NCBI GenBank assembly: GCA_965178125.1
Contig: OZ237766.1
Span: 620,001 to 684,000 of the forward strand
Source: Bilabrum cf. latius
Lineage: Eukaryota
Direction: 5' to 3'
DNA: 64,000 nucleotides
The position numbers and the translations under genes were made by a program. Below the pieces are notes generated by a model that did not search any database, had not been told where the DNA came from, and worked only from the letters and a program-made list of their open reading frames with translations. Below, piece by piece: positions 1 to 24,900 of this stretch; position 1 is the first letter of the stretch, and each line of letters begins with the position of its first letter.

Positions 1-243
1 GGAGGGGAGGTCGCGCTGGCCGTGGCGGTGCAGGGTCCGCAAGCGGTGGCTGGAGGGGAGGTCGCGCTGGCCGTGGCGGTGCAGGGTCCGCAGGTGGTGG
101 CTGGAGGGGAGGTCGCGCTGGCCGTGGCGGTGCAGGGTCCGCAGGCGGTGGCTGGAGGGGAGGTCGCGCTGGCCGTGGCGGTGCAGGGTCCGCAGGCGGT
201 GGCTGGAGGGGAGGTCGCGCTGGCCGTGGCGGTGCAGGGTCCG
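1..243 (+). repeat. 51-bp coding tandem repeat (~4.8 copies visible, truncated by window start)
   Basis: Unit ggaggggaggtcgcgctggccgtggcggtgcagggtccgcaggcggtggct starts at 1, 52, 103, 154 and 205. Confidence 0.95.
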
Positions 244-1256
244 TAGCCGGGGTTCGGCGTGACTTAGACAAAGTGGCTGTGGCTGCCGATGAAGTAGCTC
301 GCTTAATTTCTCATGATGTGTACGTGATGTGCACCGTAGATTTTTGGGACGATAGTGGATCAGCTCTCCTCCAGCTCAGTTTGCCAGGTGGCAAGAGACG
401 GCTGGGGGAGACTGAGGCCCACTGTGCAGTGAGAGAATTCAACGAAGAGGTGCAAGGACTGTCCACCTCATATGACAGACTGAGGCGAGGGACTCGAGGC
501 ATCTTGCATGGAGGGCTGCGATCTGAAAGTGGGTTCATCCGACCGGACGGCAAGATGATTTTCCTCGTCGGAGATGACGCTATAGAAGTGGAACGGTCCG
601 ATGGGTCGGCAGCCGATCCTGCCATGGCATCCGCTGCTGCAGCCGGTACGACTACGGCTGCATCGGCCGGTGCGTCGGCAGCCGATCCTGCCATGACACC
701 CGCTGCTGCAGCTGGTACGACTACGGCTGCATCGGCCGGTGCGTCGGCAGCCGATCCTGCCATGACACCCGCTGCTGCAGCTGGTACGACTGCAGCTGGT
801 ACGACTACGGCTGCATCGGTCGGTGCGTCGGCAGCCGATCCTGCCATGGCATCCGCTGCTGCAGCCGGTACGACTGCAGCTGGTACGACTGCAGCTGCAT
901 CGGTCGGTGGGTCGGCAGCCGATCCTGCCATGGCATCCGCTGCTGCAGCCGGTACGACTGCAGCTGGTACGACTGCAGCTACATCGGTCGGTGGGTCGGC
1001 AGCCGATCCTGCCATGGCATCCGCTGCTGCAGCCGGTACGACTGCAGCTGGTACGACTGCAGCTACATCGGTCGGTGGGTCGGCAGCCGATCCTGCCATG
1101 ACACCCGCTGCTGCAGCCGGTACGACTGCAGCTGGTACGACTGCAGCTACATCGGTCGGTGGGTCGGCAGCCGATCCTGCCATGACACCCGCTGCTACAG
1201 CCGGTACTACTGCAGCTGCCTCGGCCGGTGCGTCGGCGGCTGACCCTTCCACCTAA
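3..1256 (+). CDS. 5'-partial gene: RGG-rich repeats + Nudix-hydrolase-like domain + Ala/Thr/Ser repeat tail
   Basis: Frame 3 is open from the window start (RGGRAGRGGAGSAGGGW repeats) into ORF 273..1256. It contains a Nudix box-like LPGGKRRLGETEAHCAVREFNEEVQG. It ends at TAA 1254-1256, but the frame stays open to TGA 1461-1463, so the 3' end is uncertain. Confidence 0.65.
   Translation, partial: RGGRAGRGGAGSASGGWRGGRAGRGGAGSAGGGWRGGRAGRGGAGSAGGGWRGGRAGRGGAGSAGGGWRGGRAGRGGAGSVAGVRRDLDKVAVAADEVARLISHDVYVMCTVDFWDDSGSALLQLSLPGGKRRLGETEAHCAVREFNEEVQGLSTSYDRLRRGTRGILHGGLRSESGFIRPDGKMIFLVGDDAIEVERSDGSAADPAMASAAAAGTTTAASAGASAADPAMTPAAAAGTTTAASAGASAADPAMTPAAAAGTTAAGTTTAASVGASAADPAMASAAAAGTTAAGTTAAASVGGSAADPAMASAAAAGTTAAGTTAATSVGGSAADPAMASAAAAGTTAAGTTAATSVGGSAADPAMTPAAAAGTTAAGTTAATSVGGSAADPAMTPAATAGTTAAASAGASAADPST
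603..1250 (+). repeat. coding minisatellite, 60/75-bp units (SAADPAM[AS/TP]AAAAGTT[AAGTT]xA...)
   Basis: About 9 copies of gtcggcagccgatcctgccatg..., with an optional 15-bp subunit gactgcagctggtac. Confidence 0.93.
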
Positions 1257-3427
1257 GAAGTGTCAGGAGTTGGAGAGGAACAAGAAGGGGACGCCGGCAC
1301 AGGCGACCATAGTGCGGTGTCGATGGGAGAGCATAATGGGAGGAAGGGGGTTTCAGGTGCAAGGCACGAGGGGGACGCGAGTGGCAGCGGGCTGCATGGC
1401 CAGCGGCGTGCAGAGGGGGCGCATGGCAGGTTGGCCAGGACCTGCAAATGCAAGCTAAGATGATCGGCCAAAGGTGGCGACGCAGTCGTTCGGGGTGGAG
1501 CCCGGTAGGTCCATGGGACCGGGGGCAGGATTTTTTATTTTTGGTAACTGCTAATCAGTGGGGGTTGCATTAGCCGTAAAGATTAGCCAATGGGTGTGAT
1601 TGAAGTAATAAATCTGATGTATATGTAGTCTAGGTCTGATAACATCCAGGATATTTAAACCTAGACTAAATAAAAAGGCTTAGACATCTACACCACGTTA
1701 TAATCCGGATGCTAACGCCGAATGGGGTTTGGGGTTGATGTGACGATCCGATGCGTTCGAGACTCGAACACACAGTACACAAAACGAAATGGATTAACCG
1801 TAAACCATGAAAATCTGATCCAAAAGATGGTCTATGAATGCTAATCCAAAAGATGGTCTATGAATGCTGCTCCTCCTGGTCAAGGGCTTTATACGTGGGA
1901 GCGCACAAATTTGCTTGAGGTGGTCAAAAGGTCCAAGAACTTCACCATGGCAGATCTCGCCAGGGTGGTGCGCAAAGCACGCCCCTTCGCGATGGCCAGG
2001 GTGATCGACCCGAGTGGCCTGAGCAAGGTCATCGACAGGAAGGACATCAAGCTGACGCACTCGGACTTTCCAGAGGGCCATTGAGGACTCGCATCCAGCC
2101 TCTGGGGTGGTATCGTTGACAACAACGAGTCGTTCAGCTCAAGCCACGGGGGTTGCCTGCTGTGCTGCTTCTCCCTGGAGTTTCTGCATATCTGGAGCTC
2201 CCACCGTAGAGGGCGGGGGCTGTATAAGACCGGCATGGTCCGGGTCAAGGCCATCTGCAACGCCCCCAGCACCTCCAACCCCTTCAGCTGGTAGCCCTCC
2301 TGCCGGGATCGCAGCCTGCACGACTCCGCTTGTGCTTCCGCTTTGGTGAGGCCAGCAAGGTCTCTGAGATTGGATCTTGTAATGCTTGCTCGGAGTTCAG
2401 TAACAAATGTGTAGACCCCACCAGTAATTGGTGCCGAGAAAGAGAGCGACGGGGCACAGGACCAGCGTTAGACTCCCGCCGCGGAGTCGCCTGGTCCACT
2501 GGGTCGCCTCCCGCGACCCCTGCCGGCACGGCCAATGCGCCCCGTCGTCTCAGGGAATAGACCTCTCTGCCAATGGGTCAATCAATTCACACAATCACTA
2601 CATCCCCAGGCAGCCCTCTTAGCTGCCTCCCCTTTTGCCGGGTCGTGGTGGGTGGGTGGGTGGGAGAGAAGAAAGCTACTGGCTTAGGCTGCATCTGCAT
2701 TTCTTTGCTAATCCTGTCTAGCGCAGAGGCTGATCTCTCTCTTTCCACGTGTAGACTCCGAACCGGAATGACACCTCGCCGGTCGATCACAAGATCAGTG
2801 ATCACGCCAGTATCAGCTGAACGTTCGCGAACAAACAGCTGACCCCGCCGGAGGTCGCGCGGTGGGCGCAGGACCCGCTCGAGGTGCAGGCTCAGATGCG
2901 ACGTAGCGATGCGGAGGAGAAAGTAGTATATATGTTTGAGTCAAAGCACACATTTCCAAATTACAGCAGGAAAAAGAGAGAAATCGGCAGTGATGAAAAG
3001 CAGGAGCGGCGGCTGACTCGGGGTGGGCGAGGTGAGGGCACGGCAGAGAGCTAGAGAGAGGGGTGACGGTTCACCAAGTGGGTGAGGGAGTGGAGGAAGA
3101 GAAGATATTGGTTATAATTGGTGGGGTCATCGGGCTGATACGGCAGAGTGGAAGGGGGAAGCACAGGCCGGGCAGGTGGAGGCGTTGACATGTCACACGG
3201 TGGGTGACAAGTGGCTCGGATCAGGGCAGACCGGATCACCGACCACATGCGGGTGAGAAAGTTGGGAGAGTACCCGACCCGGCGAAATTGTACGAACTTT
3301 CGTAAGGTTCGGTGACGAAATTTCGCAAGGTTGGCATTCAACTGTACGTATCTGCTGTAAAATCAAGTATTTGTTAAAATAAAACCTCTTTATGTATATT
3401 AGTATAGTTATTCAACTATTACAGTAG

Positions 3428-3627
3428 NNNNNNNNNNNNNNNNNNNNNNNNNNNNNNNNNNNNNNNNNNNNNNNNNNNNNNNNNNNNNNNNNNNNNNNNN
3501 NNNNNNNNNNNNNNNNNNNNNNNNNNNNNNNNNNNNNNNNNNNNNNNNNNNNNNNNNNNNNNNNNNNNNNNNNNNNNNNNNNNNNNNNNNNNNNNNNNNN
3601 NNNNNNNNNNNNNNNNNNNNNNNNNNN
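3428..3627. other. assembly gap (200 N) flanked by a redundant ~630-bp overlap
   Basis: 2798..3427 is repeated at 3628..4268 with scattered small indels. Confidence 0.9.
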
Positions 3628-4113
3628 GTGATCACGCCAGTATCAGCTGAACGTTTCGCGAACAAACAGCTGACCGCCTGCCGAGGTCGCGCGGTGGGCG
3701 CAGGACCCCGCTCGAGGTGCAGGCTCAGATGCGACGTAGCGATGCGGAGGAGAAAGTAGTATATATGTTTGAGTCAAAGCACACATTTCCAAATTACAGC
3801 AGGAAAAAGAGAGAAATCGGCAGTGATGAAAAGCAGGAGCGGCGGCGACTCGGGGTGGGCGAAGGTGAGGGCATGAGGGCACGGCAGAGAGCTAGAGAGA
3901 GGGGTGACGGTTCACCAAGTGGGTGAGGGAGTGGAGGAAGAGAAGATATTGGTTATAATTGGTGGGGTCATCGGGCTGATACGGCAGAGTGGAAGGGGGA
4001 AGCACAGGCCGGGCAGGTGGAGGCGTTGACATGTCACACGGTGGGTGACAAGTGGCTCGGATCAGGGCGACCGGATCACCGACCACATGCGGGTGAGAAA
4101 GTTGGGAGAGTAC

Positions 4114-7100
4114 CCGACCCGGCGAAATTGTACGAACTTTCGTAAGGTTCGGTGACGAAATTTCGCAAGGTTGGCATTCAACTGTACGTATCTGCTGTAA
4201 AATCAAGTATTTGTTTAAAATAAAACCTCTTTATGTATATTAGTATAGTTATTCAACTATTACAGTAGTATTACCTCCTGAATACAAGCGGTGGGCGAGA
4301 TTCAAGGTGTGCAAACATTTGCCTCCGCCACGCAGCTGGTGCTCGATCCCTTGCGGGTCACGAAAGCATGCCACATGAAATGGCAACGATATCTTCAAAA
4401 CATGTCCCAAAATACACATATAACGAATACTATTATATATATTAGATAATAAATAATTGATATCACTGTATTTGGGTACCTGGGTCCCAAACTGACAGTC
4501 TGTACTAGCCCTCAACTCGACGGCCCCCAATCTCTTAGGTTCGATTTTCAAGTGGCAAATACAAAAATACGTCCTCCGTTTTTTATCCCATACTTAATCC
4601 ACAAATTAAGTAGGTAATATAATTGCTATGACAGTCTTGAGCGGCTCCGCAATATTATTCTCTAGCAGAAAATGTGAAGAACGTTGACTCCACCCGACGT
4701 TGCTGAGCTCGACTCATCGAAAATTGTCCAATCAAAAATTAGAACAATGCTGCCCCTAAAGGTTGTAGTCGGCTCTGTTCTTATAATAATACTTACTAAA
4801 TATACGATTAGGTGGTCTAGAGCGAACTTTTAGGCAACTGGAGAAATTTTATCAAGGGAATTTCCAGGTACCCCAACAGCATTGAATCGAAGCTCTATAG
4901 GAATAATACAACGTATTTGCTTCCCACATGCCAAAATTTGATGTTTATATGATCGTTACACACAATGGATTCGCGAGTCTTGTGCTAAACGTTGAAAGTA
5001 CCCCTAATTGTTTAATTTTCCTGTCACCATGGCTGAGCGTCCATGTGTCAAGGGTTGGCAGAATGCATCGTGTTGCTCACTAATGCAATGTCTTTTACCC
5101 CACATCGCCATCGATATAACATGTGTACATGCATATATATACTATGTAGTGGTAACTGAATCAATCATAGCGCATGCATCCAAATATCTGACGAAGCTCG
5201 AACCCGTAATAATTTCTGAAATATGTCTATGCCAGGCGTACAGAAGTGTTTTTTGGATTGTTTATGATACCCAAGCTATCATATTATACTATTTACACAT
5301 GTATGTAACACCTAAAGGTGATAAAGAGTTCATTATGCGCCGATCAGTGACTTTGTATGCTAGCAGCTGCTGCGCCACCAGGCACCCTTTCCATGATTTC
5401 GAAGCTATATTGCGTCTTAATGACCTCATATTTAATCAATATTGTCATATATATATACACTAGTATTGTAGCAAGTATGAACCAATTTGAGTGCAGTGAA
5501 AGTATGGACGTGTGTTCAATGTGCTGTTGGCGAACACATGCTGCATATATGAAGCTTGGGCCAAATCTGTTCGCAATAATAATAGTTCAGCACCTGGTAC
5601 ATACTAATAGATTAATATATTAGAATAAATGGGCAGCAGATAGTGCTTTCATGAAAATATAAGGAAGTTTTGACTCTAGGAACAGAGTCCCCAAGTTGGT
5701 GTCTGACGCTTTCCAGGCTATGTGGTTCAGTCTACAATTCCATGCTGAATAAGGAGTACTTGGAGCTATGAATACGTGTATACATATTTTGTATTCATAT
5801 TTATCATAAAGTAGCTTCAATATTGAGTTTGAGTCTATATTTGGCAAGATATCGAACGTGCACAACGGTCGGTGCACTTGGGCTTGTAGCATGCAAGCTG
5901 GTGGGCTAAGCAATGACACAGCAGTTCGATTTGCACAAGAGGACGAAGAAGCTGCAATCTTGTTGGTGGATTGTTTATGCACATAATGACCTATCTAGGG
6001 CGTAGATCAGCTGGAATCCCTAATGTTTGAGATGTACTTGACATGACTTGCAGGCTCCACACAAATCCTCGCACCACTTGCCATGGATCAACCATACTGT
6101 CGCACTTATCTTCCACAATACACGACGGAAGCCTTCCATGACAGCCTCACTATAAGTATTATATGCTATACATTGCATGCATGCCTTCATTTAGATAACC
6201 CAGCAATGAATGAAGCTCTACAGGAATTCAACCGCGGGCCTTGGTTGGTCTCTGTCAGAAACTTGATCCGATACTAGGAGTTCGTTTACTGCCTGAAATC
6301 ATGAAACAGGATTGTTTCAGCTATTGCTCCCAAAACCTATGTAGATAATACTATAATACATACTATACGTGAGGCCATGTATGTGTTAGTGCTTTACGTG
6401 GGCATATTATTGCGCTCAAAGTTGGCGATGGCGTGGGCCTGTCAGCAACCACTCCAACCTTGTCTTGACTTCCCCGCTCCTTTCTAGCTTGCTCAGTCTA
6501 AATTTGCTTACACAATCCAATTGGGTATGTATTGTGCCTATGTTAAACGTGGGCGAATGATTCATTTGCAGTCTTCCGTTTATTTTGCTTGGATACGTCA
6601 GATTCTTGCTACAGTTTCTGCAGGCTGCCCTGCACAGCGCAGTTGACTAGAGCAGACATTTAATATTTCATGATGCTGCAGCATTTAAATGCTTGATGGA
6701 TGAGTACATTAGAGAATGGCAGCACTCAATCGATGAGGAATATTGTTTTACTTGAACTATGCCGTATTCATGTCAAGGGCAAGAATCGGTCGATTCGCGT
6801 GGCAACTTTCCTAGGCGTATAACTCCACAAATTAACATTCAGACGGTAATTCACGTTGTACCATGCTTTATATACCAATAAACAAAACAATGAGATTAAA
6901 ATTTAGCAACTTAGGGTCCTAAATTCGACATTTGAGGAGTGAATTGATGATCAGCACAAGCCACCGCACTCCCGTGAATCTGGTCAGAGAGCCTATTCCA
7001 GCAAACTTAGAAATGCTTATGCTATATTCAGTAGCCTATACACATTATATATATACAGTAATGTAATAGAGTTTACAATCACTATCATTATTTTTATAGT

Positions 7101-7528
7101 TTACCTGCAGCGGCTGATTCACTGGCAGTCTGGCCAAGGCGCAATTCTGGTGTGAAATTATTTAAGATAACATTTCTCGGCACAACAATATAACTGGCGG
7201 GACGTAAATTGATATTTTACTAAAAGATATAGTATAATTACACTGGTAGTTGAATTACTACGCATTAACTATTAGTTCGGCAGAAACAGAGCTTTGAAAA
7301 AAACGGGTCATCGTCAGAGCAAATTTTTTGCTACGCCACACAAAGCATCAATGGAATACTCTAGCGGCTAGCTAGCCGCCCAATACGTAGTTAGTAGACC
7401 TACCAAACCATATCAATTAACAATTGCTTAATTGGTATTCATTTAGACTTCAAATCTCGACCCGATCCGGAGGGGTACCAATCACCGAAATCCCGGAAGT
7501 GCCGAAAGTTGGGATTTCGCCGGGTCGG
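4114..7528. mobile_element. 3,415-bp AT-rich DNA transposon (TIR element), copy 1; probably non-autonomous/degenerate
   Basis: 15-bp TIRs CCGACCCGGCGAAAT...ATTTCGCCGGGTCGG; 4-bp TSD GTAC at 4110-4113 and 7529-7532; subterminal repeats (cgaactttcgtaaggtt / cgaaatttcgcaaggtt); appears identical to 56301..59715; much lower GC than host genes; no long ORF. Confidence 0.93.
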
Positions 7529-7777
7529 GTACAATTAAACTTAATCTTAATAGATTAAGCGGCAAGCAAGCCACGTGTTACAGTGCTATTCAAGAGCTGC
7601 CCGGGCAGCGCCCGACGTTTTATTTAGTCCGATAGCTTGACGAGTGGTTAAATCAAATTCTGTGCGGGAAATTCATCCTCTACAAAAGAGATGGAGGATA
7701 AAGCTAAGAATGGATCCGGATCAGATCCCCCCGGATTCGGATAGAGCTAGCGACGAGCACCCCCAAGCAACGCGGCA

Positions 7778-10700
7778 TCAGTCCCTAGTCCTCTGTCCCC
7801 TCACTGGCTGTTCCAGAGCAGCCTGCATGCGGGCGAACGCTAGGTATGGCAGCGGCTGGCAATGCACCAGCCTGACGAACTCGGCTGGCTGCAGGCCCCT
7901 CAGCCCTTCCTGCAGATACCTGGGAGTCATTAGAGCCCTGGCCACGCCTGTGGACCCCTGTTGCCGCATCATAGGCAGCAGCAGGGACAGCAGGTACAGG
8001 CAAGTCCTCACTAGTACAGCCAGCCCGCCCACCCCGGGGGCCACCTCACACTCCTCGTCCACGTCCTCGGCAGCGATGGGCGGGGGCAGGAAATCGATCA
8101 GCGCGGCCCAGACCTGGTCATCCTCCTCCCCGTCCTCCTCTTCCTCCTCGTTATCTCCATCGCCGCCCCCGCGCCGACCGCTACCAGCCCCACCGCCCAG
8201 ATCCCAGCCCTGCCGCCCGCCCCGCCCGCCACCGGACCCCCCTTGCCCCTGGCTGCCAGCCGTCATCCACCGCAGCACGCTCCATCCCCCCGTGCTGCCC
8301 CTGCCCGATGCAGAGCCCCCCGCGCCTGCCCTCTGCCTCTCCTTCTCCCTCTCTTTCTCCCGCCGCCTGTCCTCCTCCTCGGCCTGCCCATGCACCGCCC
8401 TCGCTGTCCCAGGCGCACGGGGCTCCAACAGGCCGGCAGCGGCTGCCAGCGGCTGTGGCAAGAGGAACTGGTCCATGAGTGCCGCTGCCAGAGGGGCCGG
8501 CAGGATACCCACGAAGAAGGGGATAAGCCACTTAGGCAGGTACTGCGAGTGCACCTCGGGCACAACGGCCCCCAGCTCACGATCAAGCCTGGCCTCGTGC
8601 TCCTGCTGCCGCCGCAGCTGCCTGTGCAGCACGTCGGGCGCGCCTGCCAGCGGCCCGAAGCGGGGGGACTAGTCCTGTCCCTGTCCCTGTCCCTGTCCCT
8701 GCCCCTGCGATGATGACTCGATTGCGTCGGAGTTCTGAATCGCTTGCTGTTGCTGCTGCTACTGTCGTTGGTCCCCGCTTGGGCTGGCGCCGGTGGACCG
8801 TCCTGCCCCCGGCAGCAGCAGCACACTGCTGGGCGACGAAGACGAGCCCGGGGAAGAGGACAGCTTCTCGCCACTTTGTCCACCACTACCGCGGCCCGCA
8901 CCGCCCTTGCCCATACTTGTCTTGGTCCCCCACCTCTGGCTCGCATCGGGCCCCTCCCTGCCCAGCGCCATCAGCGCAGCCGCGGCGGCGTCCTCAGAGG
9001 GAACAAGGGAGCTCCATCCCAGCGAGCCGTCGTGCGGGCCACCAGTGGATCCCAGGCCGCTCCCGCTCCGCCCTCCTGACCCAAACCCACCTCCACCTCC
9101 ATTACATCCTCCTCCACTGGACTGCCCCTGCCTGCCCTATCCGGTGAGTCTCCAGAGCGCGTGAGGGGCCACCAGCTCGACCGAGTCCTTGCTGCAGAGG
9201 CGCAGGTGCACCTCTGGCAGGGCCTGCCTCACCACCACCCCGAGGTGCTCCGCCAGCATCGCCGTGGTCCTTGCGCCCTGCGCGTGCGGATAGAAAGCGT
9301 ACAGCTCTGGCCTCACGAAGAGCAGGCTATGCGCGCACAGGAAGGCAGTGTAGGGGTCCCTGACACAGGCCAGCAGCAGCCCGCAAATCTGGTTCATGCC
9401 CTAAGTGTACCCATGGTCCGGCCTCGAGGCAGCCAGCGCCAGCATCACATCCCTGAGGGCTGGCCTGAGTGCCCCGCCCACTGCATACAGCTGTGACCTG
9501 CCCATGGTCCTCGATATGTCCTTGATCATGGTCTCGATCTCCTTCTCCTCGCGACCACGTACGTAGGACAGAGCGCCCTGCGAGTCGCCCGCTCGATCCA
9601 CCGGTGGATCCGATCCATCCCCTGAGCCCTGCCCCTGCCCCAGACCTTGCCCCTGCGCCTACCCTTGCCCTTGCCCCACGGACCCGCTCATCTCCCTGCT
9701 CCATGACCTCCCAAGGCCCCCCTAAGGAGAAGACGCCCCCCCCAGCCTGGGGGACATCCCCTGCCCTGCACCCCTGCCCCCCGCCGCGTTGACCTTTCGC
9801 AGCTGTTTGGCCACCCTGCCCCTCGCGTGCCTGCCCCTGGCCAAACACGTGCGGAACAGCGCCGGCGAGACGTGCCCCGCATTGCCCACCGCCAGGGGAT
9901 ACACCACCTCCCTCATCGCGTGGGGGACCCCCCTGTGCCAAGCAGCCAGCGCCCGCCTCGCCCCCGGCCCCACGAGACATTCGGGCCACGCGCCCACCAG
10001 CCGCACCCACTCGGGACACCTGCCCTCCTCCGCGGCTGCTCCCGCCGCCCGCTCGTGCCGGCCCTGGCTCCGCGCCGCTTTGACCAGCTGCTGGGGCGAG
10101 TGCAGGGTCCTGGGCAAAGTGCCCCCGCTGAGGCGCAATGCGTCCACCCCCGGTTTGGCCACCATCTCCCGACCGAGCATGGAGGATCGCCGCATGGCAC
10201 CTTCATCCTCATCTTCATCCTCATCTGCCTCCCCCCGGCTGCCCTTACGGCCTCTGCCCCGGCCCTCCTCACCGGCGCCATCGCCACCCTCCTGTTTGCT
10301 CCTCCCGGTCTCCCCCTCAGTCTCGGACTCTGTGTCGCTGAAACCGTCCTGCCCCCGCTTCTTCTTCTGCTGCCCGTAGCCAAGGGCAAGGGCAAACCCG
10401 CGGCCCACGAGCAGACCAAGCATCCTCCTCTCTACCTCGGACTCGTCTGCGCCTGCATCTGCACGTGCACCATCGCGCGATGCAGGAGCCGATGCGTCGC
10501 CCGACTGTGCCTCCCGCCTCGGCTTCCAGTCTCGGTACCGAGGCACCGCGAGCTGTGACGAGTGCGCCGGGCCAAGCACCGCCGGCTGCTGTCTGTCACT
10601 GGCACTGCTGCTGGCACTGCTTGCTCTGCCTTCCGGGTCACCACCTGCCTCACTCACGGCACGTTGGTTCTCCTTCTCGTGCTGCTCGACGGCTCGAGCC

Positions 10701-13700
10701 AGCGCCAGGGCAAGCCTTCGCTCAGACCACGCGCCACCGTGCAGTGCACCCGTGCAAGCCCTGTGCCCCAGCGCGCCCCACGCCAGCAAGCCGCCGTCAT
10801 CCGTCACCACGCAGCTAGCGTCGTGTTTCGCACATAGCCGTTCAACCCCCAGGGCGGGGTGCAGCGCGCCGCCGATCCCACCTCGGGGACTTGAAGGGTC
10901 GCCCCCCGCCTCGATCTCGTCGATCCCCTCGATCCCTAGCCCCAGCCACCTGAGCTCGTGCGGCCACTGCACTGTCCTGGGCTCGAGAGACACTGTCCCG
11001 GACGAGAGGAGCTCGTCCACACGAGCCATTTCCCTCTCTTCTTCTTCTTTTTCTTCCTTCGCTTTCTCCTCTTCACCCTTCTCTGCCTGCTCCTCCACTC
11101 TCCCTTGTTCCCTGGGGCCGTCCCCCATTGCGGGGGCAGATCGATCTCCCTCGATGGTCGCGGGTGTGCCGCGGCCAGAGGCAGACCCTGTGCCTGTGCC
11201 TGTGCCCGAGGCGGATCCACGGGTGGAGTCGGCCGTAGCAGAAGATCCAGCGGGGGACGGACTGCGGCCATCCGAGCCCTCTCCTGCTCCTGCCCCTGCC
11301 CCTGCCCCTGCTTCCAGCAGCCCCCGTGCCGCCTATTTCTTGCTCCGGATCCTCTCCTCCTCCAGCATCACCTGCCGCTGCAGCCTCCTCACAGTGCTCC
11401 GCTGCACCGCCCCCATCACCAGCCGGGTCCTGGCCCGCCAGTACCGCACTGGGCTGCTCCCGGGGACCCTCGCCCCAAGCTCCACCCCGCGGCCCGACAG
11501 CTGACCCAGGTCATCCAGACCCCAGCCCACCACGCGCCCGTCCGTCGTGCCCACTAGAACGTGGTCAGACCCGCTGGCCAGGGAACACACCATCGCGGGC
11601 TCCCCTCGGGGCCTCCCTGTCCCCACGTCGGGGGATGCAGGGGACGCCAGGGGCACGGGGGTCCCCGCTGGGGACGGGCTGCCCCCGCCCGGTCCAGGGG
11701 AACCCCCCCCGGGGGTGGTCACGGACCCCGTGCCCTGGGACCCAGAGTCGAGCTTTCCCCCGACATCGGCATCGCCCCCGAACCCCACGGGCACGAGGAC
11801 AGGCTTCCACGCGAAAGGAAGGTTCTCCTCCTCTTCGGTAGCGGCCTAGTGCGCCTCTGCGGTGCTCTACTTCTGCTCTCTATCCCCTCCGGCTTGACCC
11901 TCGATCGCTTGTTCTTCGTATTCATCTTCGGACGAAGACGCGGCTTCCACGATCCCACTCGATTCACCCCCCTTCTCATTCTCCTTCTGTTCCCTGGCCA
12001 GCCCGCTGCTGTCAAGGGGCCCCAGCTTCATCCCCAGCTGACCGTACCGGTTGCAACCAAACGCCCACACGTGCCCCTGGGTGGTCAAAAAGGCCGTGTG
12101 CGCCCGCCCCATGGCTACCCGACTCACCCGGATCCCGGCAAGAGGCACCTGCGCCTCCAGCAGCCAGGGCTCGGCCACGCAGCGGCCTAGCGGTCCGGCG
12201 GTGCGGCGGGTTGCGGATGCCGCTGACAGACCGGAGGCTTGGGTGCCCGCGGGGCTGTGTTCCCTGGGGTTGTTCCCCGGGGAACTGCCCTGCTCGATCG
12301 GGGACATCGGACCGGTCCCGTGTTTGGCCACCTTGGGAAGGGCATATTCGGCGGATAGATCCGGCTTGCCCCCCTGCACTGTGTGCCTCCGGGGAGAGAG
12401 ACCCCCTTGTGGGGTCAGCTCCTGGGCGGGGGTGGCGGATGTCCCTGACCCCGGAGAGGGCACGGGCAGCGGGTGAGGGGACTCCCCCTCGCTTGCTCCC
12501 CCCGCAGATCGCTAGGCCCCGTGTGCACGTCCCCCCCGCGTCTTGCCTCGGCCTTGCCCCGACCCGTACCCAGATCCGGAGCCGTACCCCCCCTGCGCCC
12601 CCGATGGCCTCCGTCTGGACCCCGCCCCCATGGACAGCCGCCTGGCACCCTCCGTGGCTGCCCGGGCACGTGCACGGTACTGCAGTGCAGCGCGACGCAG
12701 GGCCTGTGCACGACCCTCTCCCTCCGTGCCGCTGGTTCCGCTATCCCAACCGGCGCCGCGCATGCCGCCCCCGCTCTCCCCACCGCCGCCGCCGCTTTCG
12801 AAACCGGAACCGTGCCTCCCGTGTTCCCCCGCCCCCGGGTCCCCGCCTCCCTGCGCCATGAGCATCACCAGCCCAGACACTGAGGTGGTCAGGGTGGACC
12901 GCCGCCGCCCGGACCCCGCTCTCCTGGCCATTGTGTTCCCCACGGCCCCGCTCATCCTCCGCTCGAAGCTCCCGGAGCCCACCCCGTGCCCTCCCGACCC
13001 GGCGCTCGAGTGGCCGCTACCCGCATCCCCCGCGCCCCTCCTTTGCCTGCCCCCATCCTCGCCGGACCCATCGTCCTCCACCACGTCCGAGGCACCCTCC
13101 CGGGACCGCTCCAGCGCGCTGGGCAGCTCATTCACCACGCCGTGTTCCCTGACCACAGACCCGCGGTGATGCAGCATCTGACCCCCGGCCCCATCCGACG
13201 CCGCGCCCGATCCACCGGTCGGCGAGGGCAGGCCAATCTGGAAGGACCTGGCTCGCCTGCGACCCACCCCCATGCCCATGCCCATGCCCATGCCTCGAGA
13301 CCTAGGCAGTCCCACCCCGCCACCGGCCCCTCCGCGCGATCCGGTCGCAAAGTACCCTGCTGGCCGACCACTCGTCACACTGCCACGCCGCGTGCCATGG
13401 CCCCCACCCGGGGGGGAGGGGTCGGGCGGCGGCACACTGGATCCCCCGGAGCCCTCCCCGTAGGCAGCCGCGGCATCGGCAAGCGCCAGCGCGTCTGTTC
13501 CCTAGAGCGAGCCCAGCCCCGTCCCCTCCGTGTCCTCGGTCCCCTGTGTTCCCTGGGACTCGGCCGTGGATAGCCTCCGTCGGGCCCGGGAGGAGGGCAG
13601 GTCCGCAGACGAGAGCCTCCTCCTGGCGTGCGGGTGCGGGTGCGGCTAGTCGTCCGCACTCGTCACACCATCTCGAGGGACCAGGCCGGGGTCGGGGTGG

Positions 13701-16700
13701 CTGACACCCCACCGGGAGCCCGTTGTTCCCTGCCTCCCTACCTTGCTCTCTCCACCAGCTGCGGGGTCGTGGCCTGCCCTTGCCCCGTCCTGCCACTGCT
13801 GCTGCTGCTGCCCAATCGCATCTGCTGCATCCATGGGCCCGCGGTGGGGGGAACGCATGCTGACGGTGTGACGACGACGGCCCTCGGTCACCAGTCCATC
13901 GCTGCGGGGAGAATCCGCAGACCCCGGTGCCATCCCTCCCGTTGTTCCCTGGCCCCCGTCCAGCCTCCACTCGGCAGGGGGTGAGCCACCCGCCCCTCCC
14001 CCTCCCCCGCTGCCGTGCCGCAAGGGGTGCTGCTGGGGCGTCGTGCCCGCCACCGTCTGTCGCCTCGCCAGAGGGGAGGAGGAGGAGGCCAGCGATCCCG
14101 CTCCATGGGCGTGGGCGTGCCCCTGACCCGCCATGGGCCCCTGTCCCGGGATGACGGGCACCACGGCCCCCGTGACCTGGTGGGACACCCGCCTGGACAA
14201 CGAGAGGGCCATTGAGGTGCCCCCCTGGGACCGGCGGCGAGACCCGGCCATGCTGCCACCCCCACTCGTCACACCGTGGGAGTCCGTCCCGAGCGGGAAG
14301 GCCTGTCCCACCGGCTTCATCTGACCCCCCGTGTGCTGTACCGCCCTTGGCCTCCACTCGTCACGCTCGCTCCCATGGCCCAGCCGGCCCCGCCCCCCGC
14401 ACCCCCAGGTGAAGAGGGTCCCGCTCTGGGTGAAGGCACCCGAGTGCTTGGCCCCCGCCACCACCCCCACCACCTCTCGGTCCGCAAGCGCTCGCACAAC
14501 CCTCGGCGACCTCACGTCCAGCTCGTCACCGTGCCCCAGCCGACCGTGAGACCCCTTGCCGAAGGAAAGCACGCACCCGTCCGCGCATAGCAGCAGGGCG
14601 TGATCGTCCCCGCAGGCCACCCCCAGCACGGCCGCGGCAGCCGTCCACAGGAACCGCTGGGAGGTGGGCGAGGGAACAAGCCGCCAGCCCGCCCTGGCCG
14701 CCTCTGCTCTCAGAAAGGCAAAGGAACCGTCCAGGGCCCGGGAGGGCAACGGGGGCCACTCGCGGGGAGCACCACCATGCAGTGCACCTGTCACCGGCCC
14801 GGCAGGGTCTCCTCCTCGTGGCTGGGGGGCGGCGTGCGCGCCCCACCCCTCGCTCGACTGTTCCCTGCCGCCCCTCCCCTGCTCCCTGTGTTCCCTGGCG
14901 CTCTTCGCTCTCTCCATCCGCCTCCTGCTCGCCTGCATCGCGTCAGCGTGCGAGGCCAAGGGAGACCTGGACAGGGACCCGCCGGAGCCCAAGGAGGACA
15001 CGGAGCCGGGGGCTCGGCTGGGGGCGTGCGGGCGAATCTGAGGGAGGGAATGCTGGGCGTGGGGTGATGTAGCTGATTCGCCGCCGGTGCCCTGACCACT
15101 GCCCGGTGCTGCTGACGACCCCCCTTCCCCCGGGGAAATCCCCCCCCACCATGGGGTCGGCCTGTACTCGAACACGTCCCCCGTGCACGTGACCACCACG
15201 GCGTGTCTTCCACTCGCATCTGCATCGGCCACACCCGCGTGTCTGAGCCACTGCACGGACACGCTGTTCCCCGCCAGGCTGGGTTCCCCCAGCTGCGACC
15301 AACTCACCAACCCGGGGCACTGCCCACCATACCCATTGCCATCGCCACCACTAGCAGACGCAGCAGAAGCAGGCAGCGCCAGCACCCGCACCGGCCTCGT
15401 CTCCGCCGCGGCCTGCATGGCCCGAAGCCGCGCCAGCTCCCGCACATCCGTCTCCTGCCTCGCCCTCTCCCCGTGGGCCTCTGCGCGCCCCGCCGCCAAA
15501 TCGGCAGCATCCTCCAGCTCCGTGTCGGAGGCGGACTCGGAGCCGGAACTGGCCCCGGGGCCGCTGTGTCCAGCCACCACCCCCTACCCCTGCCCCTGCC
15601 CCTGCCCCTGCCCCTGCCCCTGCCGCTGGTGCCTGAGCTCCACTCGGGGGGATCCCACGGCCCCGATGCCCGCCCCTGTCCCCGCCCCCGCCCCCGCCCC
15701 CGCCCCCGCTGCACTCGTCAGCCCGCCTAGCTGCGCCCCGTCCGTCCCAGCACCGGAGCCGATGGGCCCCATGGGCGGGGTCTGCATACCCGAGTGCAGT
15801 GCACCCGTCCCCACCGAGGCAGACCCCACCGCGGGGGCACCCGACGCGGGGAGCGCCACCGCACGGGCACCCGCACCCCCCACGTACCCCTGGGGGTGAC
15901 CCAATGACCCCACATCGGGGTCCCTCAGCCCGCTGGGTGCCTCTGCCAGCATCTCCTCCACGCCCCCCCTCGTGCCCCCGGAAAGAACGCTCGATGCGTC
16001 CCCGGCCCCTTCTGCCCTGGTGCCTCCCCCGATGCCGGACTCGGCCATAGAGTCGCCTTCCTCTAGCACGCTGCCGAGGACAGACCGGGAGGGCCCGCCC
16101 AGCTGGCTTCCGGTGCCCCCACTCGCTGTGCGCATCTCGCTGATGAGCGCCTGCCGACGCGCCTGCCAGGCTTTGTACGCGGCTCGCTCGCGGCGGCGCT
16201 TCTCCCGTCGCTCCATCTTCAACTTGGCTTCTGTTGATAGACTAGGCACGCCTGCAGCTTTCATGGGCTCTTGCTTATCGGAAGCTTTGCTCGATTCTTG
16301 GCTGCTTTGCCTCGAGTGCCGCAACTCTCTTCGAAGGCGACGGACGTCGCCCTTTAGATACTCGATTGCCTCCCGGTACCTGCAACGGCGGAGAAAATGT
16401 ATCAATAGTGTTGCAATTCAGAGGGTATGGCGCGCAACATGGGGGGGAGGGCTAGCCTGAAGACTTCCAGCGATGATGCTTGGATTCGGTATCACATCTA
16501 CCCAAGCTGATCGTAGGAAACGGCGGTTCGACTGTTTGCTCATCTCACTGCCGTTCGAGCTACTTTTTGACCTTCTTGATCTCTCGGTCACGGTCCAGAT
16601 CTTCTCTGGTACCGCTGCGGCCGCTCGCATCCGACTTGCGCCCAGCATCATCGCTCTCAGGCAAGCTGGGGGGCCTGACGCCCCGAGTTCCCCCCCTCCC

Positions 16701-16926: not shown

Positions 16927-19900
16927 TCAATGCGGCGCGCCAACGGCTCCATTTGTATTTGCACCACCCAACCCATCCAGATCGGATCTGGCCAGCACCA
17001 CCGCCCTCACAAGCGGCAGCAGCACTGGCGGCCAGTCCAGGCCGGAGCTTCCGGTCTTCGCGGCGCTGCCGCTACTGCCAGCATCTCCACGCCCCTCGAG
17101 CATCCGCAGCACCACCTTCATCTGTTCCCCAGCCGCCTCCACTGCCTCCCGCTGTGCCACGGTGCCGGTGCCCCACCCCGCACCGGATGCCCCCCCCTCA
17201 TGGTCGCGGCCATCCCCCCGAAGCACCCACGTACTCGTCACACCAACCGCCCCGGCCCCTCCCTGCCCCCACGCCCCCAGCCTCTCCCAACCCCTTCCCG
17301 CCTCCCCCAGCAGCCCATCGCTCAGGGGACCCTCCATCCCACCCATCCCACCGCTCCCAGCTGCACCGGTGGTATTGCCAGCTGCTTCCCCTCTTCCCCT
17401 TCCGTCACCACCCTCTCCCCGCCGGCCCCTCCCAGACTGGGCCATGGATCCCCCGGGTCTCTCAGGACCCGCCCAATCCGCAAGGGCTCGGAGCCCTGCA
17501 CGCGCCTCCCCGGATGTACCACCGTGCAGTGCACCTGACCCCTCCCACAGCCTCACCAGCTGCGAGGCCAGCTCGGTCGCATCGCCGCCGTGCCCCGCCC
17601 CTCCATCACTCGTCACACCTTTGGCCCGCACGGCACCCAATACCACTCGAACGTCGCGCAAGACTGCAGTGAGCCAGGACTCACTCGTCACATTGCGACC
17701 CCCGCACGTCCGTTCGCACGCCATGCATCCCGCCACTGCCAGCACTGCTCCAAGCAGCACCTCCACCTGATCCCACTCGTCACACTCTCCCAGCGCCCTC
17801 ACGAGAGCACCCGACACCAGCTCCACGTCCTTGTCAAGCCACTGACCCCCAGCACCTGTATAGTCTTCATCTCTACCAGAGTGCCCCCGCCCCACACCCT
17901 ACCCGTCCCCACTGAACAGCCCCTCCCTCACCCCTTGCCCCCACTCCCTCCCCGCCTCCATCGCCACTCGCCCCGCCCACCCGCACACAGCCCTCCGCCC
18001 CGCCCGAGCCCCCTCCCTGGCCGCACCCCCTGTTCCCCGCAGTCCCAGCGCACCAGCAAGATCACTCATCACACGGCGGGGAAGCCCAGGGTCCGCTCGA
18101 CTCCGCCGCGGCATGGATCTCACCCATTCACCAGCACGCCTCGCCCAGCGCCACGCAGATCCGCGGGACAAGGCGCCGTCGTGCAGTGCACCCTGACTGC
18201 CACCCATGCCAGCATGACCCGTGGCTGACGCGGCGACCCGCCGCAGCCTCCTCATGACCCGCCGGCTCGCCAGGCCCATCGCTCCCCGCCTGCCACCGGC
18301 GCCCAAGCACCCGCTCAATGCGCCGGCCGCAGCCTGCAGCGCCCCACCGCACTCGTCACACCCTCCACCCACCCCGGCAGGCGCCCTCACCAGCGCCTCC
18401 TCCACCGCCGCGACCGCCTCCGCCTCCTGCGAGGGAACAAGCCCCCTCACTCCACCGGTGGACCGCCCCCCGCCAGCCACCGCCTCCGCCGCCAGCCCCA
18501 CACCATCCGCCCACCCATCTACACCCACGCACCCGTCCACAGCCGCCTCAAGCACCCCCTGGGCCTCCCGAGTGAGCGCGCCTAGGGCCAGGCACGCGCC
18601 CTCGCTGCTGCGCATGGCACCCAGGACCGCACCACCGTGCGATGCACCCTACCCGGCACCCCCCACCTCCAGGGCCTCGACGGCGGCCTGCAGCGCACCC
18701 AGCACGGTCTCGCCCGATGCCAGCTCCAGCGGCGGGCCGGGGTCCCCTAGCTCCTCACTCGTCACACCTCTGGCAGCTTGGCCTGTCCATGGCACATCCT
18801 CCTGCTCCTAGTCAATATCCCCACCCTCGACCTCCTCGTGGCTCTGCTCTTCTTCTTCCTGATCCATTGCGCTGCCCCCCCCTGCACGGCCGATCCCCGC
18901 CCGCATCCCCCCGGAGCCTGAGTCTGAATCCGATTCCGAGTCGGGGCCCGAATCAGACTCCGAGTCGGACAGCCAGCCCCCATTCCCAGGCTCACCACCA
19001 CCGCCACCGCTGCGGCCCACCCCTTGTTCCCTGGCCAGGGCACACACCGCCCCCATGGCCCCCGCCGCCTCCGTCGCAGCAACCCGCCCGATCGAAGCCC
19101 AGGCCTCGGAGAGGAGGGCCAGCCCCAGCAGCCGACCCGCCGCGCTGCAGGGCAATGCACCCAGCACCTGCCTCCGCAACCTCTCACTCGTCACACGGGC
19201 GGACACGAGCAGCTAAGCCGCCCGCACGCACCTCGCCACGGCCGCCCGCCCGTCCCCCCCACCCTCCCTGGCGAGTCGCAACAGGCCAAGCCCCAGCCGA
19301 GCCGCCGACACCGACCGCGTCAACGGGTCAGCCGCCGCCCGCTTGCCCCCGCCCTTGCCCCCGCGCGAGCCCCCGCCGGCCCACAGCAGCGCACCCGCCC
19401 CGTCCACGGGTCCCGGCAGTGGAGGCCGATGCACGTGCGAGTGGGCGGCTACAACCGCCAGCCTTGCCGCCGCCCCGAGCCCGAGGAGTGCGTGACCCCC
19501 GTCCAGGGCGACGGGCCAGGGAACAACCTAGGGAACAGAGTGTTGATGACCAGATCCCCTCAGCTGGGGGCAGCCGCAGCCCCCACCCACTGCATCGCGG
19601 AGCACTGCCTCGGCTGCACCTGGCCCGGCCGGACCCGCTGACGTCACAGCGCGAGTCACCGCGGCCCGCAACTCCGCGGCAAGGGCCGCCCCGGCCCAGC
19701 CCTCCACGCTCACGGGCGCCCCGCCAGGCGAATTGAACCCCGTCACCCCATCCTGCTCGTCGCACCCCTCCTCTGCCCGTGCGGCGAGCAGACGGTCCAG
19801 CTGCCTGCACGCCAGCCCGAGCCCATGCCCGCCCGCACTCGTCACACCTCCGCTCCCCAGCCACCGGTCCTCCGCCCACTGCAGCAGCAGCCCCAGGCGG

Positions 19901-20878: not shown

Positions 20879-21749
20879 ATGGGGTCCCTATTTTCAATGT
20901 TTGGCGGATCGACCGAAAAAGCAAAGGTTCTTGTTGTTGGGCTTGATAATAGCGGCAAGACAACAATATTGAATCGTTTGAAGCCAGATGGCGTGAGTGC
21001 AACAGGCGCATGCGATGCTTTATTCCCTTCTCGGTGTGGATTCTATATGCATCTGGCGTCGGGTAGTTACATATTCCTTATGGCACAGACTGTTACGGAT
21101 GAGGTAACACCTACGGTGGGGTTCACGGTGGAACAATTCAAGGTTGATAATTTGCAGTTCGAGGCGTTCGATATGGGCGGCGCCCAGCGCTTCCGAACAA
21201 TGTGGGAGAGCCGATACGCGGACGTAGACTGTGTAATATTTGTTGTAGATAGTGCCGATAAGCTCCGGCTTGTCGTGGCGAAGGTGAGACTGCCGTGCCG
21301 TGTCCGCTGCGTGTCGCCTTGGCGAATCCACCCGTCGGGGCGCTCGCCGCCTTGCGTGTGGTATCATGAATCTCAGTCCTGCTGCTCGCTTGACGCTCAT
21401 GTACACCCTACAATCCATTGACCCCCCGCAGGACGAGTTCGACGGCATGCTCGAGAACGACTCGATCAAGGCCCGCCCCGTGCCCGTGCCTGTCCTGGTG
21501 TTCGCCAACAAGATGGACGTGAAGGACGCCATGGACCACGTGGAGGTCTCCGAGGGCCTGGGCCTTGCTGAGCTGAGCGACCGCCCCTGGCACATTGAGG
21601 CCAGCAACGCCCTCTCGGGGGAGGGTCTGGACGAGGGGGTCAAGTGGCTGGGGGCGCAGGTGACCAAGCAGAAGGAGGAAGCCAAGGGAGGAGGAGGGGC
21701 GGGTGCCGCGAAAGGGGGGGCGGGGGCGGGGGCGGGTGCGGGGCGATGA
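20879..21749 (+). CDS. ARL6: ARF-like small GTPase ARL6/BBS3; 3 exons (20879-20992, 21089-21283, 21432-21749), 208 aa
   Basis: MG start; GLDNSGKTTILNRLKP, PTVGF, FDMGG, IFVVDSADKLRLVVAK|DE, FANKMD, WHIEASNALSGEGLDEGVKWL match the ARL6 pattern. Two GTGAG...CAG phase-0 introns; TGA stop. Confidence 0.88.
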
Positions 21750-21908
21750 CACGGCATGCCATGCCATGATTTCGAGATCACAGCGGACCTTGATTGCATA
21801 TTTGGTTGCAGCGAGAGATTGGATCAAATGGATGGGAGAGTCACTGAACGCAAGCACAAGCACAGGCTACACGCATACATTTGATGTCACATCCCCACAT
21901 TGCACTCG

Positions 21909-24900
21909 TCACAGCGCAGGCAGGGCACCCTAGGCCCGAGGCAGCCGGTTGCCGCCGCCATGGCCACCATCCATGCCCCCTCCGCCGCCGAGCGACGGCA
22001 AGCCGCTGCTGCCACCCCCGCCCGGCCCCAGTCCCGGCAGTCCCCCGCCCGCGCTGTTCCCCCCCCTCTACCTACCCACAGATCTTCGGCGAAACGCGTG
22101 CTCCCCACTCCCCCCAGATGGGGGCACGGGGTTCACGGAGGGTAACCCCCCCCCACCCCCGCTGGTACCGCCCATGTTCATGCCCATGCCCATTCCCATG
22201 CCTATGCCCCTCCCCCCGCCCTGCCCCGAGACGGGGGGTAAACCCCCACCTCCACTGTTCCCCCCGATCCCAGGCAACCCACCTCCCTGGCTCCTCCCCT
22301 GTCCCTGCCTGCTCCGGCTGCGACTGCCCCCCGACTCCCTGCTGCCCCCCCCGCGCCCACCCCCACCGCCCAGGTCAGGCAGCCCCCCCCCGGCCCTACC
22401 CCTGCCACCGCCCCCCCCATCCTCCTGCCCCCACTGCCCATCTCCGCACCCTGCCCCTGGCAGCACGGTGTATCCCGCGCCCATCCCCCTGCTGCTGCTG
22501 CTGTTGCTGCCGCTCCCCGCCCGGTGACCGCCCCCGGAGGACCGACCCCTGCCCCTATCCCCCTGCCCACTCCCACTCCCATTCCCATTCCCACTGCCAC
22601 CCAGAGAAGGCAAAGCACCGCCACTCATCGCACCGGAGCCGGAGCCCTGCTTCCCGCCGTGCCCTCCCCCCCCCCTGCCGTCGCCACCATTCGCCCCCCC
22701 CCCTAGCACGGGGAGTGCCCCGCCACCGCCACCACCCCCTCGGCTGTTCCCTCCGCTGTTCCCCCGCTTGGACTCGACCAGGCCCCCAAACCCGCCCCCA
22801 TTCCCGCCCACAGACGGAAGCGATCCGGCGCCCATCCCCAAGCCAGCACTGGCACTGGATCCCGCCCTATGGCCCGACACGCGCCTCGCTGATCCCCGCG
22901 ATCCACCATCACGACCCTCGGACCCCACCCCGATCGAGGGAAGGTTCGCCGGGGTTCCCCCGCCCCTAGAGGAGGATCTGTCCCCGTAGGACCCTCGCCC
23001 GTCGTCGCTCCCATGGTCAAACCCGGTGGCGCTGTTCCCTGCGCCCCCACCCAGGTCGGGCAGCCCCTGGCCCCCCAGTCCGGGCCCCACGCCGCTCCTC
23101 GCGCTGGCCCTGGACCCCTGGCCCCCCCTTGACCCCCCCCTGGAGGCACCGGGGGCCTGGGGCAGGAGCCCCCCCCCTCCCGCCGAAGACCCCCGGCTGC
23201 CCCCCTGGGCCCTCGCCTCCTGCTGCAGCCTGGCGTTGAAGGCGTTCCTAGCCCTGCCCGCCGCGGGGGGCAGCTCCCAGGACTCCTCCTCCTCGTTCCA
23301 CACGGCTCGTTCGAAGATCTTATCCAGCGTGCTGCTGTCCATGAACATGCTCACCAGCTGCTCCATGAGTCTCCGTTCCTTGTCCTGTTCCCTGATCTGC
23401 GCCATCATCTGGTCCCGCTGCCTCTCCGACTCCCACTCGAGGTCCTGCAGCTCCCTCCTGAGCTCCTTCTCCCTGGCCTTGTGCTTGGCTTTCAGACGGC
23501 GCATGAGCTTCTGGTGCTTGTCGTTCAGCTGGGAGAGCTCTGCAACCTCTTCTGCAGCGGCCGCTTTCGCTTCCTCCGCTGCTTTGGCATCCTTCGCCGC
23601 CCTCGCCCTCTCCTTCTTGAGCTGCCTCGCCTTGTACTTCTGCTTCCTCACCGCGTCCCTGGCCTTGGCCTCCGCTGCCTCGGCTGCACGGCGCTGCCTT
23701 GCCAGCTCGGCTGCCTCTGCCGCTTCCTTCTCCTTCTACTCCTCTGACTTGCTGTCTCCAGCACCCGACTGCACCTGCCCGTGTCCATGTCCCCCCGCCC
23801 CTCCGCTGTCATCCTCCCCCTTCGATTCGGATGCACCCGCGCCCGCCCTTGCTGGTGAAGCGCCTTGGGACGGGCTCTTGGACTCGGAGTCGGAAGCACC
23901 ACCGGTTGCAACCGCCGCCTGTTCCTTGGACAGCCCACCGCCCTGCCCCCCGCTACCGCCGCCGTCCCCCGCGCCCGCCACTGCAGCCACCGCAGCCGAG
24001 GCAGGAAGAGCGCCATCGTCCTCGGCGTGCACCTGGGCCTGCAGGGCGGCCAGTTTCGTTTCGAGGGCCTTGCGCGCCTCTCGCTCTGCCTGCAGGGCAG
24101 CTTCGTGGGCGGCAGCGGGGTCAGCGGGGTCCTGAGGTGGCGCTGTTCCCTGGGCATCATCTGCTTGCTGCTGCTGCGGAGGAGCTGCTGCGCCTGCTGT
24201 TCCTTCCTGCCCTGGTGCAGGTGCTGCTGGTGCTTGTGCTCCAGCCGCATCAGCGCCTCCGGTCGGTGCATCCTCCACACCCTCCCCGCTTTGACCACCA
24301 GACGGCGCAGTTGCCCCGCCAGTACCATCACCAGCACCCTGCCCAGTCTGGGTCCCAGTGGCAGGGGTCGAAGACTTGCCCCCGTCTCCGTCCACGTCTC
24401 CCGCGCCCTCCCTACCGCCAGCCCCGCCTGCACCAGACGCAGCACCAGATCCTGCGCTGGCAGCAACTCCTCCGCTTTTCCCGGCGGGTGGCATGGCGGC
24501 GGGTGCCTGTGCCTGTGCCTGCGCCTGGAGCAGCTTTGCAATGGCCTCTGGGTCCGCCCCCCCGGCCGCCTGCAGCTGCTTGAACTTCTCCATCTGGTCC
24601 TGCAGCTACCTCTTGAGCGTCTCGATCTCGTCCTGGTACTCCCTGATGAGTGCATCCTTGGGGTCTTCGTTGATGATGGGCTTGTTCTTGATGCGCTTGG
24701 CACGGTTGGCGTATCGCAGCGTGGACAAGGTCTCGTCGTAGTTATAGTCGGCGGGGCCGATTGCCGCCATCATCACAGTCTTGGTGTTGCCACCCAGCGA
24801 GTCCTGCAGCAGCCGGGTGAGCTTCGAGTCCCTGTACGGGATGTGCTTGCTCTTTCCCATAGCGTTGTCCACCAGCGCCGAGATGACGTTCCCCAGCGCC

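Follow-up and report, generated by a model that had tools for sequence, protein, structure and literature searches.

A probable nuclear code with UAG as glutamine and UAA and UGA as stops in a 64,000-nucleotide window from Bilabrum cf. latius

Do UAA and UAG carry different meanings in the nuclear genome of Bilabrum cf. latius? The question is raised by a stretch of 64,000 nucleotides (contig OZ237766.1 of assembly GCA_965178125.1, positions 620,001 to 684,000 of the forward strand), analyzed here as a whole and referred to as the window, with position 1 as its first letter. When the standard stops are applied, its long reading frames are broken, and when TAG is taken as sense, they become long, mostly intron-free open reading frames (ORFs), chiefly on the minus strand. 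A sequence-only reading of this DNA had taken it as established that one meaning is nearly always common to UAA and UAG, which is correct but has published exceptions (PMC5304391 and PMC11687900). Two alternatives were left standing by that reading, namely, a code in which UAG alone is reassigned, with UAA and UGA as stops, and a code in which both UAR codons encode glutamine (Gln), with extreme avoidance of TAA and with TGA as the sole stop. We conclude that the nuclear code is very probably of the former type, with UAG as Gln and UAA and UGA as terminators, as in NCBI table 15. In this GC-rich genome, UGA is the usual stop and UAA a minor one.

In-frame TAG and the absence of TAA

First, we counted stop codons in and out of frame in 11 genes of the window, comprising 11,903 codons. 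There were 44 in-frame TAG codons and not one TAA or TGA, in line with the earlier count of no internal TAA against about 40 TAG in roughly 12,000 codons. In sense frames 1, 2 and 3, the numbers were 0, 19 and 36 for TAA, 0, 194 and 199 for TGA, and 44, 62 and 52 for TAG, and the antisense frames of the same genes held 13, 13 and 15 TAA. Thus, the reading frame is purged of TAA just as it is of TGA, and TAG is about equally common in and out of frame. Since TAA is common off-frame, the trinucleotide itself is not avoided. The same genes use 65 CAA and 362 CAG codons for Gln, a CAA fraction of 0.152, at which about 8 in-frame TAA would be expected beside 44 TAG (probability of none among 44, 0.848^44 = 7e-4). 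Over the range of A-ending fractions tried, from 0.092 to 0.215, this probability ran from 1.4e-2 to 2.4e-5. The 44 TAG codons were spread over 9 of the 11 genes at relative positions from 0.03 to 1.00, with no depletion toward the gene ends, and several of them fell within (GQ)n and poly-Q runs.

Judging from alignments, UAG is read as Gln, as TAG occurs at conserved Gln positions. The motor domain of a kinesin gene (minus strand) has four TAG columns, and two of them were Q in all 10 aligned homologues, namely, the P-loop column YG-Q-TG (25428 to 25430) and the column NST-Q-RE (25512 to 25514); the other two columns were variable. Along similar lines, the gene for an RCC1/RabGAP-TBC protein (g1) has a TAG at 9401 to 9403 of the minus strand, inside the Pfam RabGAP-TBC match, in the context GYT-q-GMN, whose Gln we take to be the catalytic "glutamine finger" of this domain. 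With regard to UAG as a terminator, conserved gene ends were too few to tally, and they provided one case, that of the kinesin gene, in which a TAG lies seven codons before the stop (21930 to 21932, minus strand). The tail beyond it ends in a conserved ..LPAL followed by TGA, an end also found in the relatives P0005 and P0006, indicating that TAG is read through even near the end of the gene.

The same pattern was found in a JGI metagenome contig (L001; 6,589 nucleotides [nt], 57% GC) obtained with the purH gene of the window as the query. This contig is syntenic with the window at about 32.6 to 38.9 kb, including the N-terminal part of g4, one of the long minus-strand genes, and the two exons of its purH show 84% and 91% amino acid identity to the window protein. 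Over 1,924 codons (including those of the C terminus of g5), frames 1, 2 and 3 had 10, 21 and 20 TAG, 0, 5 and 11 TAA, and 0, 37 and 62 TGA, and all three complete genes ended at TGA. With 13 CAA and 42 CAG codons, the probability of no TAA among 10 is 0.07, and that for window and contig together, each at its own CAA fraction, is about 5e-5. No in-frame TAA was found in the 13,827 codons of the two species.

Gene ends at TGA and TAA

Of the 11 window genes, nine have TGA as their stop and two have TAA, as the earlier reading had it: the Nudix-like gene g0, on the plus strand (TAA at 1254 to 1256), and g4, on the minus strand (TAA at 29445 to 29447). When an ARL-type GTPase gene and the ankyrin-like genes of a tandem array (see below) are added, TGA is the stop in 11 of 13 kinds of gene and TAA in the remaining two. 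That TGA is a true stop follows from the conserved ends of purH (..FHH followed by TGA) and of the kinesin gene (..LPAL followed by TGA). The in-frame TGA described earlier after each of the two TAA codons, 68 codons beyond the one in g0 and 2 codons beyond the one in g4, was found where reported (1461 to 1463, plus strand, and 29436 to 29438, minus strand). Second stops of the latter kind recur in the window: in 3 of the 11 genes, a small number, a second stop lies exactly two codons past the first, as TGA..TGA in g8 (27865 to 27867 and 27856 to 27858, minus strand), TGA..TAA in the DUF829 gene g10 (38415 to 38426, plus strand) and TAA..TGA in g4. Given this recurrence, the TGA after the TAA of g4 is no sign of read-through. 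PMC6879139 deals with tandem stops in ciliates whose codes are reassigned.

Each of the two TAA-ended genes had a single match in protein searches. With g0, we found P0128 (187 amino acids [aa], JGI), which is 79% identical in the 164 residues aligned and has three of the tail repeats where the window protein has about nine. P0128 ends in ..GGTAADPPN and the window protein in ..GASAADPST, followed by TAA, at the same final residue position. With the last 260 residues of g4, we found P0130 (324 aa, 39% identity), which ends in ..GKGGKKVKGKK, and the window protein, ending in ..KGKGKGKK before its TAA, has the same final residue. In both cases, therefore, the orthologue ends at the residue that precedes the TAA of the window.

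The 68 codons beyond the TAA of g0 (1257 to 1460), previously described as looking like coding sequence, were compared with the runs past the other gene ends. The numbers of open codons up to the next TGA or TAA after the nine TGA stops were 18, 89, 256, 88, 2, 13, 2, 151 and 9, so that 4 of the 9 genes have runs of at least 68 codons, as do 53% of random off-frame starts. Runs of this size are ordinary, and the length of the one past position 1254 is no evidence of coding. The codon usage score of 1257 to 1460 (0.027) was ambiguous: among true coding windows it ranked at the 7th percentile, and among off-frame windows it belonged to the top 2.5%. Taken together, these figures do not sustain the earlier description.

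A comparison of the stretch with a relative pointed the same way. Searching the 68 residues with phmmer against 1.84 billion representative proteins returned four matches, namely, P0126, the long repetitive proteins P0125 and P0127, and one that was specific, P0124 (E value, 1.5e-7), a 69-aa ORF on an ENA contig of 8,156 nt. By tblastn, the center of P0124 (GEHNGRKG..GLHGQ) matches the window at 1275 to 1442 in the frame of the TAA, and its N-terminal part (KRGAPAQATTVRC versus KKGTPAQATIVRC) and C-terminal part (QMGRTAGRPGPARAS versus QRGRMAGWPGPANAS) match another frame (1282 to 1455). As the matches are split over two frames, the copies differ by at least two insertions or deletions (indels) that are not multiples of three, although their nucleotide sequences are still similar. 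Assuming that the contig of P0124 is the orthologous locus, the stretch past the TAA appears to evolve like untranslated sequence. We also considered, and did not count, the ends of two contigs (X6, 1167 to 1403; X7, 1163 to 1403), which stop 58 nt before the TGA at 1461, because a strain indel near 1404 to 1410 could equally break an assembly there.

The positions 1257 to 1460 are thus most likely a 3' untranslated region. The TAA at 1254 to 1256 would end g0, the codons beyond it being untranslated and open by chance, and the first in-frame TGA (1461 to 1463) would probably be without function; in GC-rich DNA with only two stop codons, frames often stay open past the stop. Likewise, the TAA at 29445 to 29447 would end g4, and the TGA two codons later would serve as a second stop. 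As for the decoding apparatus, an anticodon-CUA tRNA reads UAG and not UAA (PMC5304391), and lineages with reassigned stops often have changes in the N domain of eRF1, e.g., T32G in the GTS motif of Iotanema (PMC5304391). By analogy with the published cases, a tRNA-Gln with anticodon CUA, unable to pair with UAA, would read UAG here, and eRF1 would have lost recognition of UAG while keeping that of UAA and UGA. ARAGORN found no tRNA genes in the window or in the syntenic contig, and a scan of the window found no Rfam family at gathering scores. The gene for eRF1 does not lie in the window.

Rival readings and known codes

Several points weigh against UAA as a stop. Neither of the two TAA-ended genes has a deeply conserved C terminus, and both tails are of low complexity. 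P0128, P0130 and P0124 were compared as proteins only, which is the main gap in the argument: terminal codons of TAG, which is sense here, would weaken or reverse what is drawn from the ends of the orthologues and from the stretch downstream of position 1254. The frame past position 1254 scores best of the six, its 0.027 lying in the lower tail of coding windows, and the Nudix part of g0 scores 0.062, which is not far above it. With an A-ending fraction of only 0.092 for this codon pair, the probability of finding no TAA would rise to 0.014. Finally, few gene ends were seen, those of 13 kinds of gene in the window plus three in the syntenic contig.

One rival reading is a code of the table 6 type, in which UAR is Gln, TGA is the sole stop and the two TAA codons are rare sense codons near gene ends. 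The predominance of TGA at gene ends, the in-frame TGA after both TAA codons and the score of the frame past position 1254 all fit it. However, with both terminal TAA counted as sense, the probability of 2 or fewer among 46 is 0.02 at the CAA fraction, both codons would have to fall by chance exactly where the orthologues end, the stretch past the first of them is not conserved in frame in the relative, and the abundance of off-frame TAA as well as the repetition of the pattern in the syntenic contig speak against it. We regard this reading, the second of the earlier alternatives, as very unlikely indeed. A leaky or context-dependent UAA, with some read-through at 1254 yielding a protein longer by 68 residues that ends at TGA 1461, is very unlikely too. 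It would account for 68 codons free of TAG, TAA and TGA, for the higher frequency of G at codon position 1 of the stretch (0.53, versus 0.40 at positions 2 and 3) and for its having the best score of six frames, but after 4 of the 9 TGA stops the frame stays open for as long or longer, the differences from P0124 shift the frame, and P0128 ends at the same residue. There is next to no likelihood that the in-frame TAG codons are artefacts of pseudogenes, unspliced introns or assembly errors under a standard code. Introns do occur in this genome, and the window contains a run of 200 Ns (3428 to 3627), but the TAG codons are spread along 9 of 11 genes and fall in invariant Gln columns, TGA and TAA are never in frame, the pattern recurs in an independent metagenome contig, and contigs of other runs cover the genes with few or no differences. 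The first of the earlier alternatives, reassignment of UAG alone with UAA and UGA as stops, is thus favored by the purging of TAA, the syntenic contig, the ends of the orthologues and the frame-shifting differences downstream.

This combination is rare among known codes. UAG as Gln with UAA kept as a stop has been described for Iotanema spirale (PMC5304391 and PMC11687900) and for the ciliates Protocruzia tuzeti, Hartmannula sinica and Trochilia petrani (PMC11687900), and the window resembles these four in having UAG as Gln and UAA and UGA as terminators. The published table 15 cases that we found come from a fornicate and from ciliates, lineages that mostly stop at UAA, whereas the window is stramenopile-like and GC-rich, with UGA as the main stop. 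UAR as Gln (table 6) is used by many ciliates, hexamitin diplomonads, ulvophyte green algae, Streblomastix and Amoeboaphelidium (PMC11687900). The window shares with these lineages UAG as Gln and UGA as a stop but differs from them in its lack of in-frame TAA (0 of 11,903 codons, and 0 of 1,924 in the syntenic contig) and in the two genes that end at TAA. Other decoupled codes are those of the rhizarian exLh and of some metagenome-assembled genomes (MAGs) of phyllopharyngean ciliates, with UAG as Leu, of Scotinosphaera, with UAG as Ser, and of Oligohymenophorea sp. PL0344, with UAA as Lys and UAG as Glu (PMC5304391 and PMC11687900). As in all of these, the meanings of UAG and UAA are split in the window, but here UAG is Gln and UAA has not been reassigned. 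Condylostoma has a context-dependent code that uses each of the three stop codons as sense, too. The same holds for Blastocrithidia (PMC12152300). The window is like both in having a stop codon as sense inside genes but unlike them in that no TAA or TGA occurs in frame and TAG is not depleted near gene ends.

Full-text literature searches, which did not extend to most subscription journals, turned up no stramenopile whose nuclear code has UAG as sense, and the excerpts of PMC11687900 name no stramenopile among the taxa with UAG as Gln and UAA as a stop. Only a handful of nuclear lineages have been reported to split the two codons (PMC5304391 and PMC11687900). A further case would come from a different supergroup branch, from a GC-rich genome with UGA as the main stop and from a lineage with a close relative that has the same pattern, and it would provide an independent data point on the evolution of tRNA(CUA) and of changed eRF1 specificity. 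In practical terms, standard gene callers will shred the genes of such a genome at every TAG, for instance, the kinesin gene into pieces.

Gene content, lineage and recurrent motifs

The gene-rich parts of the window have 60 to 72% GC, with AT-richer stretches at about 4 to 8 kb and 56 to 60 kb. g0 (3 to 1253, plus strand) runs off the 5' end of the window and has a weak Pfam NUDIX match (E value, 0.0015) below the cutoff. Its frame holds tandem repeats of 51 bp (4.9 copies) at 1 to 250 and, at 598 to 1218, of 69 bp (2.9 copies) and 84 bp (6.1 copies). Pfam matches identified the RCC1/RabGAP-TBC protein g1 (7781 to 16264, minus strand, plus an upstream exon), the CBF/Mak21 protein g6, the GNAT/FR47-like protein g7, purH (g9; 34268 to 36247, plus strand; AICARFT_IMPCHas and MGS), which has no in-frame TAG, and the DUF829 protein g10. 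The kinesin-2-like motor gene g3 (21912 to 25727, minus strand; TGA at 21909 to 21911) has seven in-frame TAG codons, and g4 (29448 to 34277, minus strand), with 1,610 codons, has six. Four ORFs, g2, g4, g5 and g8, have no Pfam family.

The 5' part of g1 contains a 169-nt GT..AG intron (GTGAGA..TTGCAG; 16380 to 16548, minus strand). In contigs of runs X5 and X6, position 16377 is joined directly to 16547, which removes this intron, and exon 1 as joined there has a TAG in frame (KK-q-LERQ). This exon lengthens the ORF upstream, and no start codon was found in it. Besides, an ARL-type small GTPase gene lies on the plus strand at about 20900 to 21700, with at least two frame changes that resemble introns and an end at TGA. 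The long g2 ORF overlaps it in antisense with its upstream end, and the start of g2 is therefore probably further downstream than the ORF suggests. Between 41300 and 54600, there are eight tandem units of about 1,635 to 1,647 bp, each with a minus-strand ORF of 240 to 244 codons that has no TAG, looks ankyrin-like by eye and ends at a TGA lying inside the 10-mer GTGACGAGTG.

The AT-richer regions at 1570 to 7640 and at about 56000 to 59600 have no long ORFs. Segments at 2587 to 3362 recur at 3408 to 4230 and resemble the ends of repeated elements. The AT-rich stretch at 4480 to 7143 had almost no contig coverage in runs X5 to X7, which we only guess to be RNA, and was covered by one contig of run X8 with 21 differences.

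With regard to the lineage, the best named match of the kinesin was that of Cafeteria roenbergensis (74%). In an 11-row tree of motor domains, Cafeteria, Ectocarpus, two oomycetes and three rows without a name shared a clade with the window sequence (support, 99/97), and Chlamydomonas, Andalucia and a barnacle lay outside it; the placement goes no finer than this clade. From this one gene and few rows, the source of the window appears stramenopile-like. Halocafeteria seosinensis was rejected as the source, since its GC content is given as 47 to 48%, unlike that of the window.

Queries of genome contigs found no relative with the kinesin and no close relative with purH, for which they returned bacterial loci (35 to 38% identity) and two eukaryote-type loci (55 to 57%). 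These two, L081 and L082, are in MAGs labeled as bacterial, have ..FHH followed by TAG or TGA, and are probably misbinned eukaryotic DNA. Among 11 distant eukaryote-type purH loci (55 to 63% identity), 9 were intact and all 9 ended in ..FHH directly followed by a stop, TAG in six and TGA in three; the other two carry in-frame stops and were not judged. The distant lineages with TAG after ..FHH use it as a stop. In the syntenic contig, an AT-rich, intron-like insert (2140 to 2266 of the contig) divides purH between two frames, at the position where the purH of the window has an in-frame insert of low complexity.

The 10-mer GTGACGAGTG (in its fuller form GGTGTGACGAGTG, often followed by A) was present in 36 copies in the window, versus 0.12 expected, e.g., at 13657 to 13666, 19185 to 19194, 21903 to 21912, 38414 to 38423 and 61682 to 61691. 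Inside annotated genes, there were 26 sense and 4 antisense copies. Of the sense copies, 21 were in the frame GTG-ACG-AGT (peptide VTS), 3 in the frame in which the next base is never A, and 2 in the frame of the TGA, these being the real stops of the kinesin and DUF829 genes. As well as the stop of the ankyrin-like genes, the motif supplies the second stop of g8. The syntenic contig has one exact copy at the orthologous site of g4 and a copy with one mismatch upstream of purH, a place at which the window has a copy as well. We considered the motif (GVTSE) as a mark of introns and rejected this, as contigs cross its copies without joints (e.g., X5, 13392 to 14376) and the one real joint is an ordinary GT..AG. 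Viral contigs gave seven single-copy matches to a 16-nt form of the motif, at 31 to 56% GC, which we took as chance, and the literature on the 10-mer gave unrelated matches only, as judged from titles and the beginnings of abstracts.

The sequence GGTGTGACGAGTG(A) has a TGA in each of its two alternative frames, and at least three genes take their real stop from it. It may be a selected "stop cassette." If this were true, the cassette would offset the shortage of stops, in and out of frame, of a GC-rich genome with UGA and UAA only. We consider it unlikely, however, that the window species and its syntenic relative represent an independent and unreported origin of UAG as Gln with UAA as a stop in a GC-rich stramenopile and, in addition, a selected cassette of this type. 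Outside the tandem arrays, further 10-mers were overrepresented, CCAGGGAACA (12 copies on one strand and 4 on the other) and GGTGCACTGCA (likewise 8 and 2), for example, at 14776 to 14787, 17523 to 17534 and 61856 to 61867, and GGTGCACTGCA reads G-A-L-H-G/D-G in several unrelated proteins.

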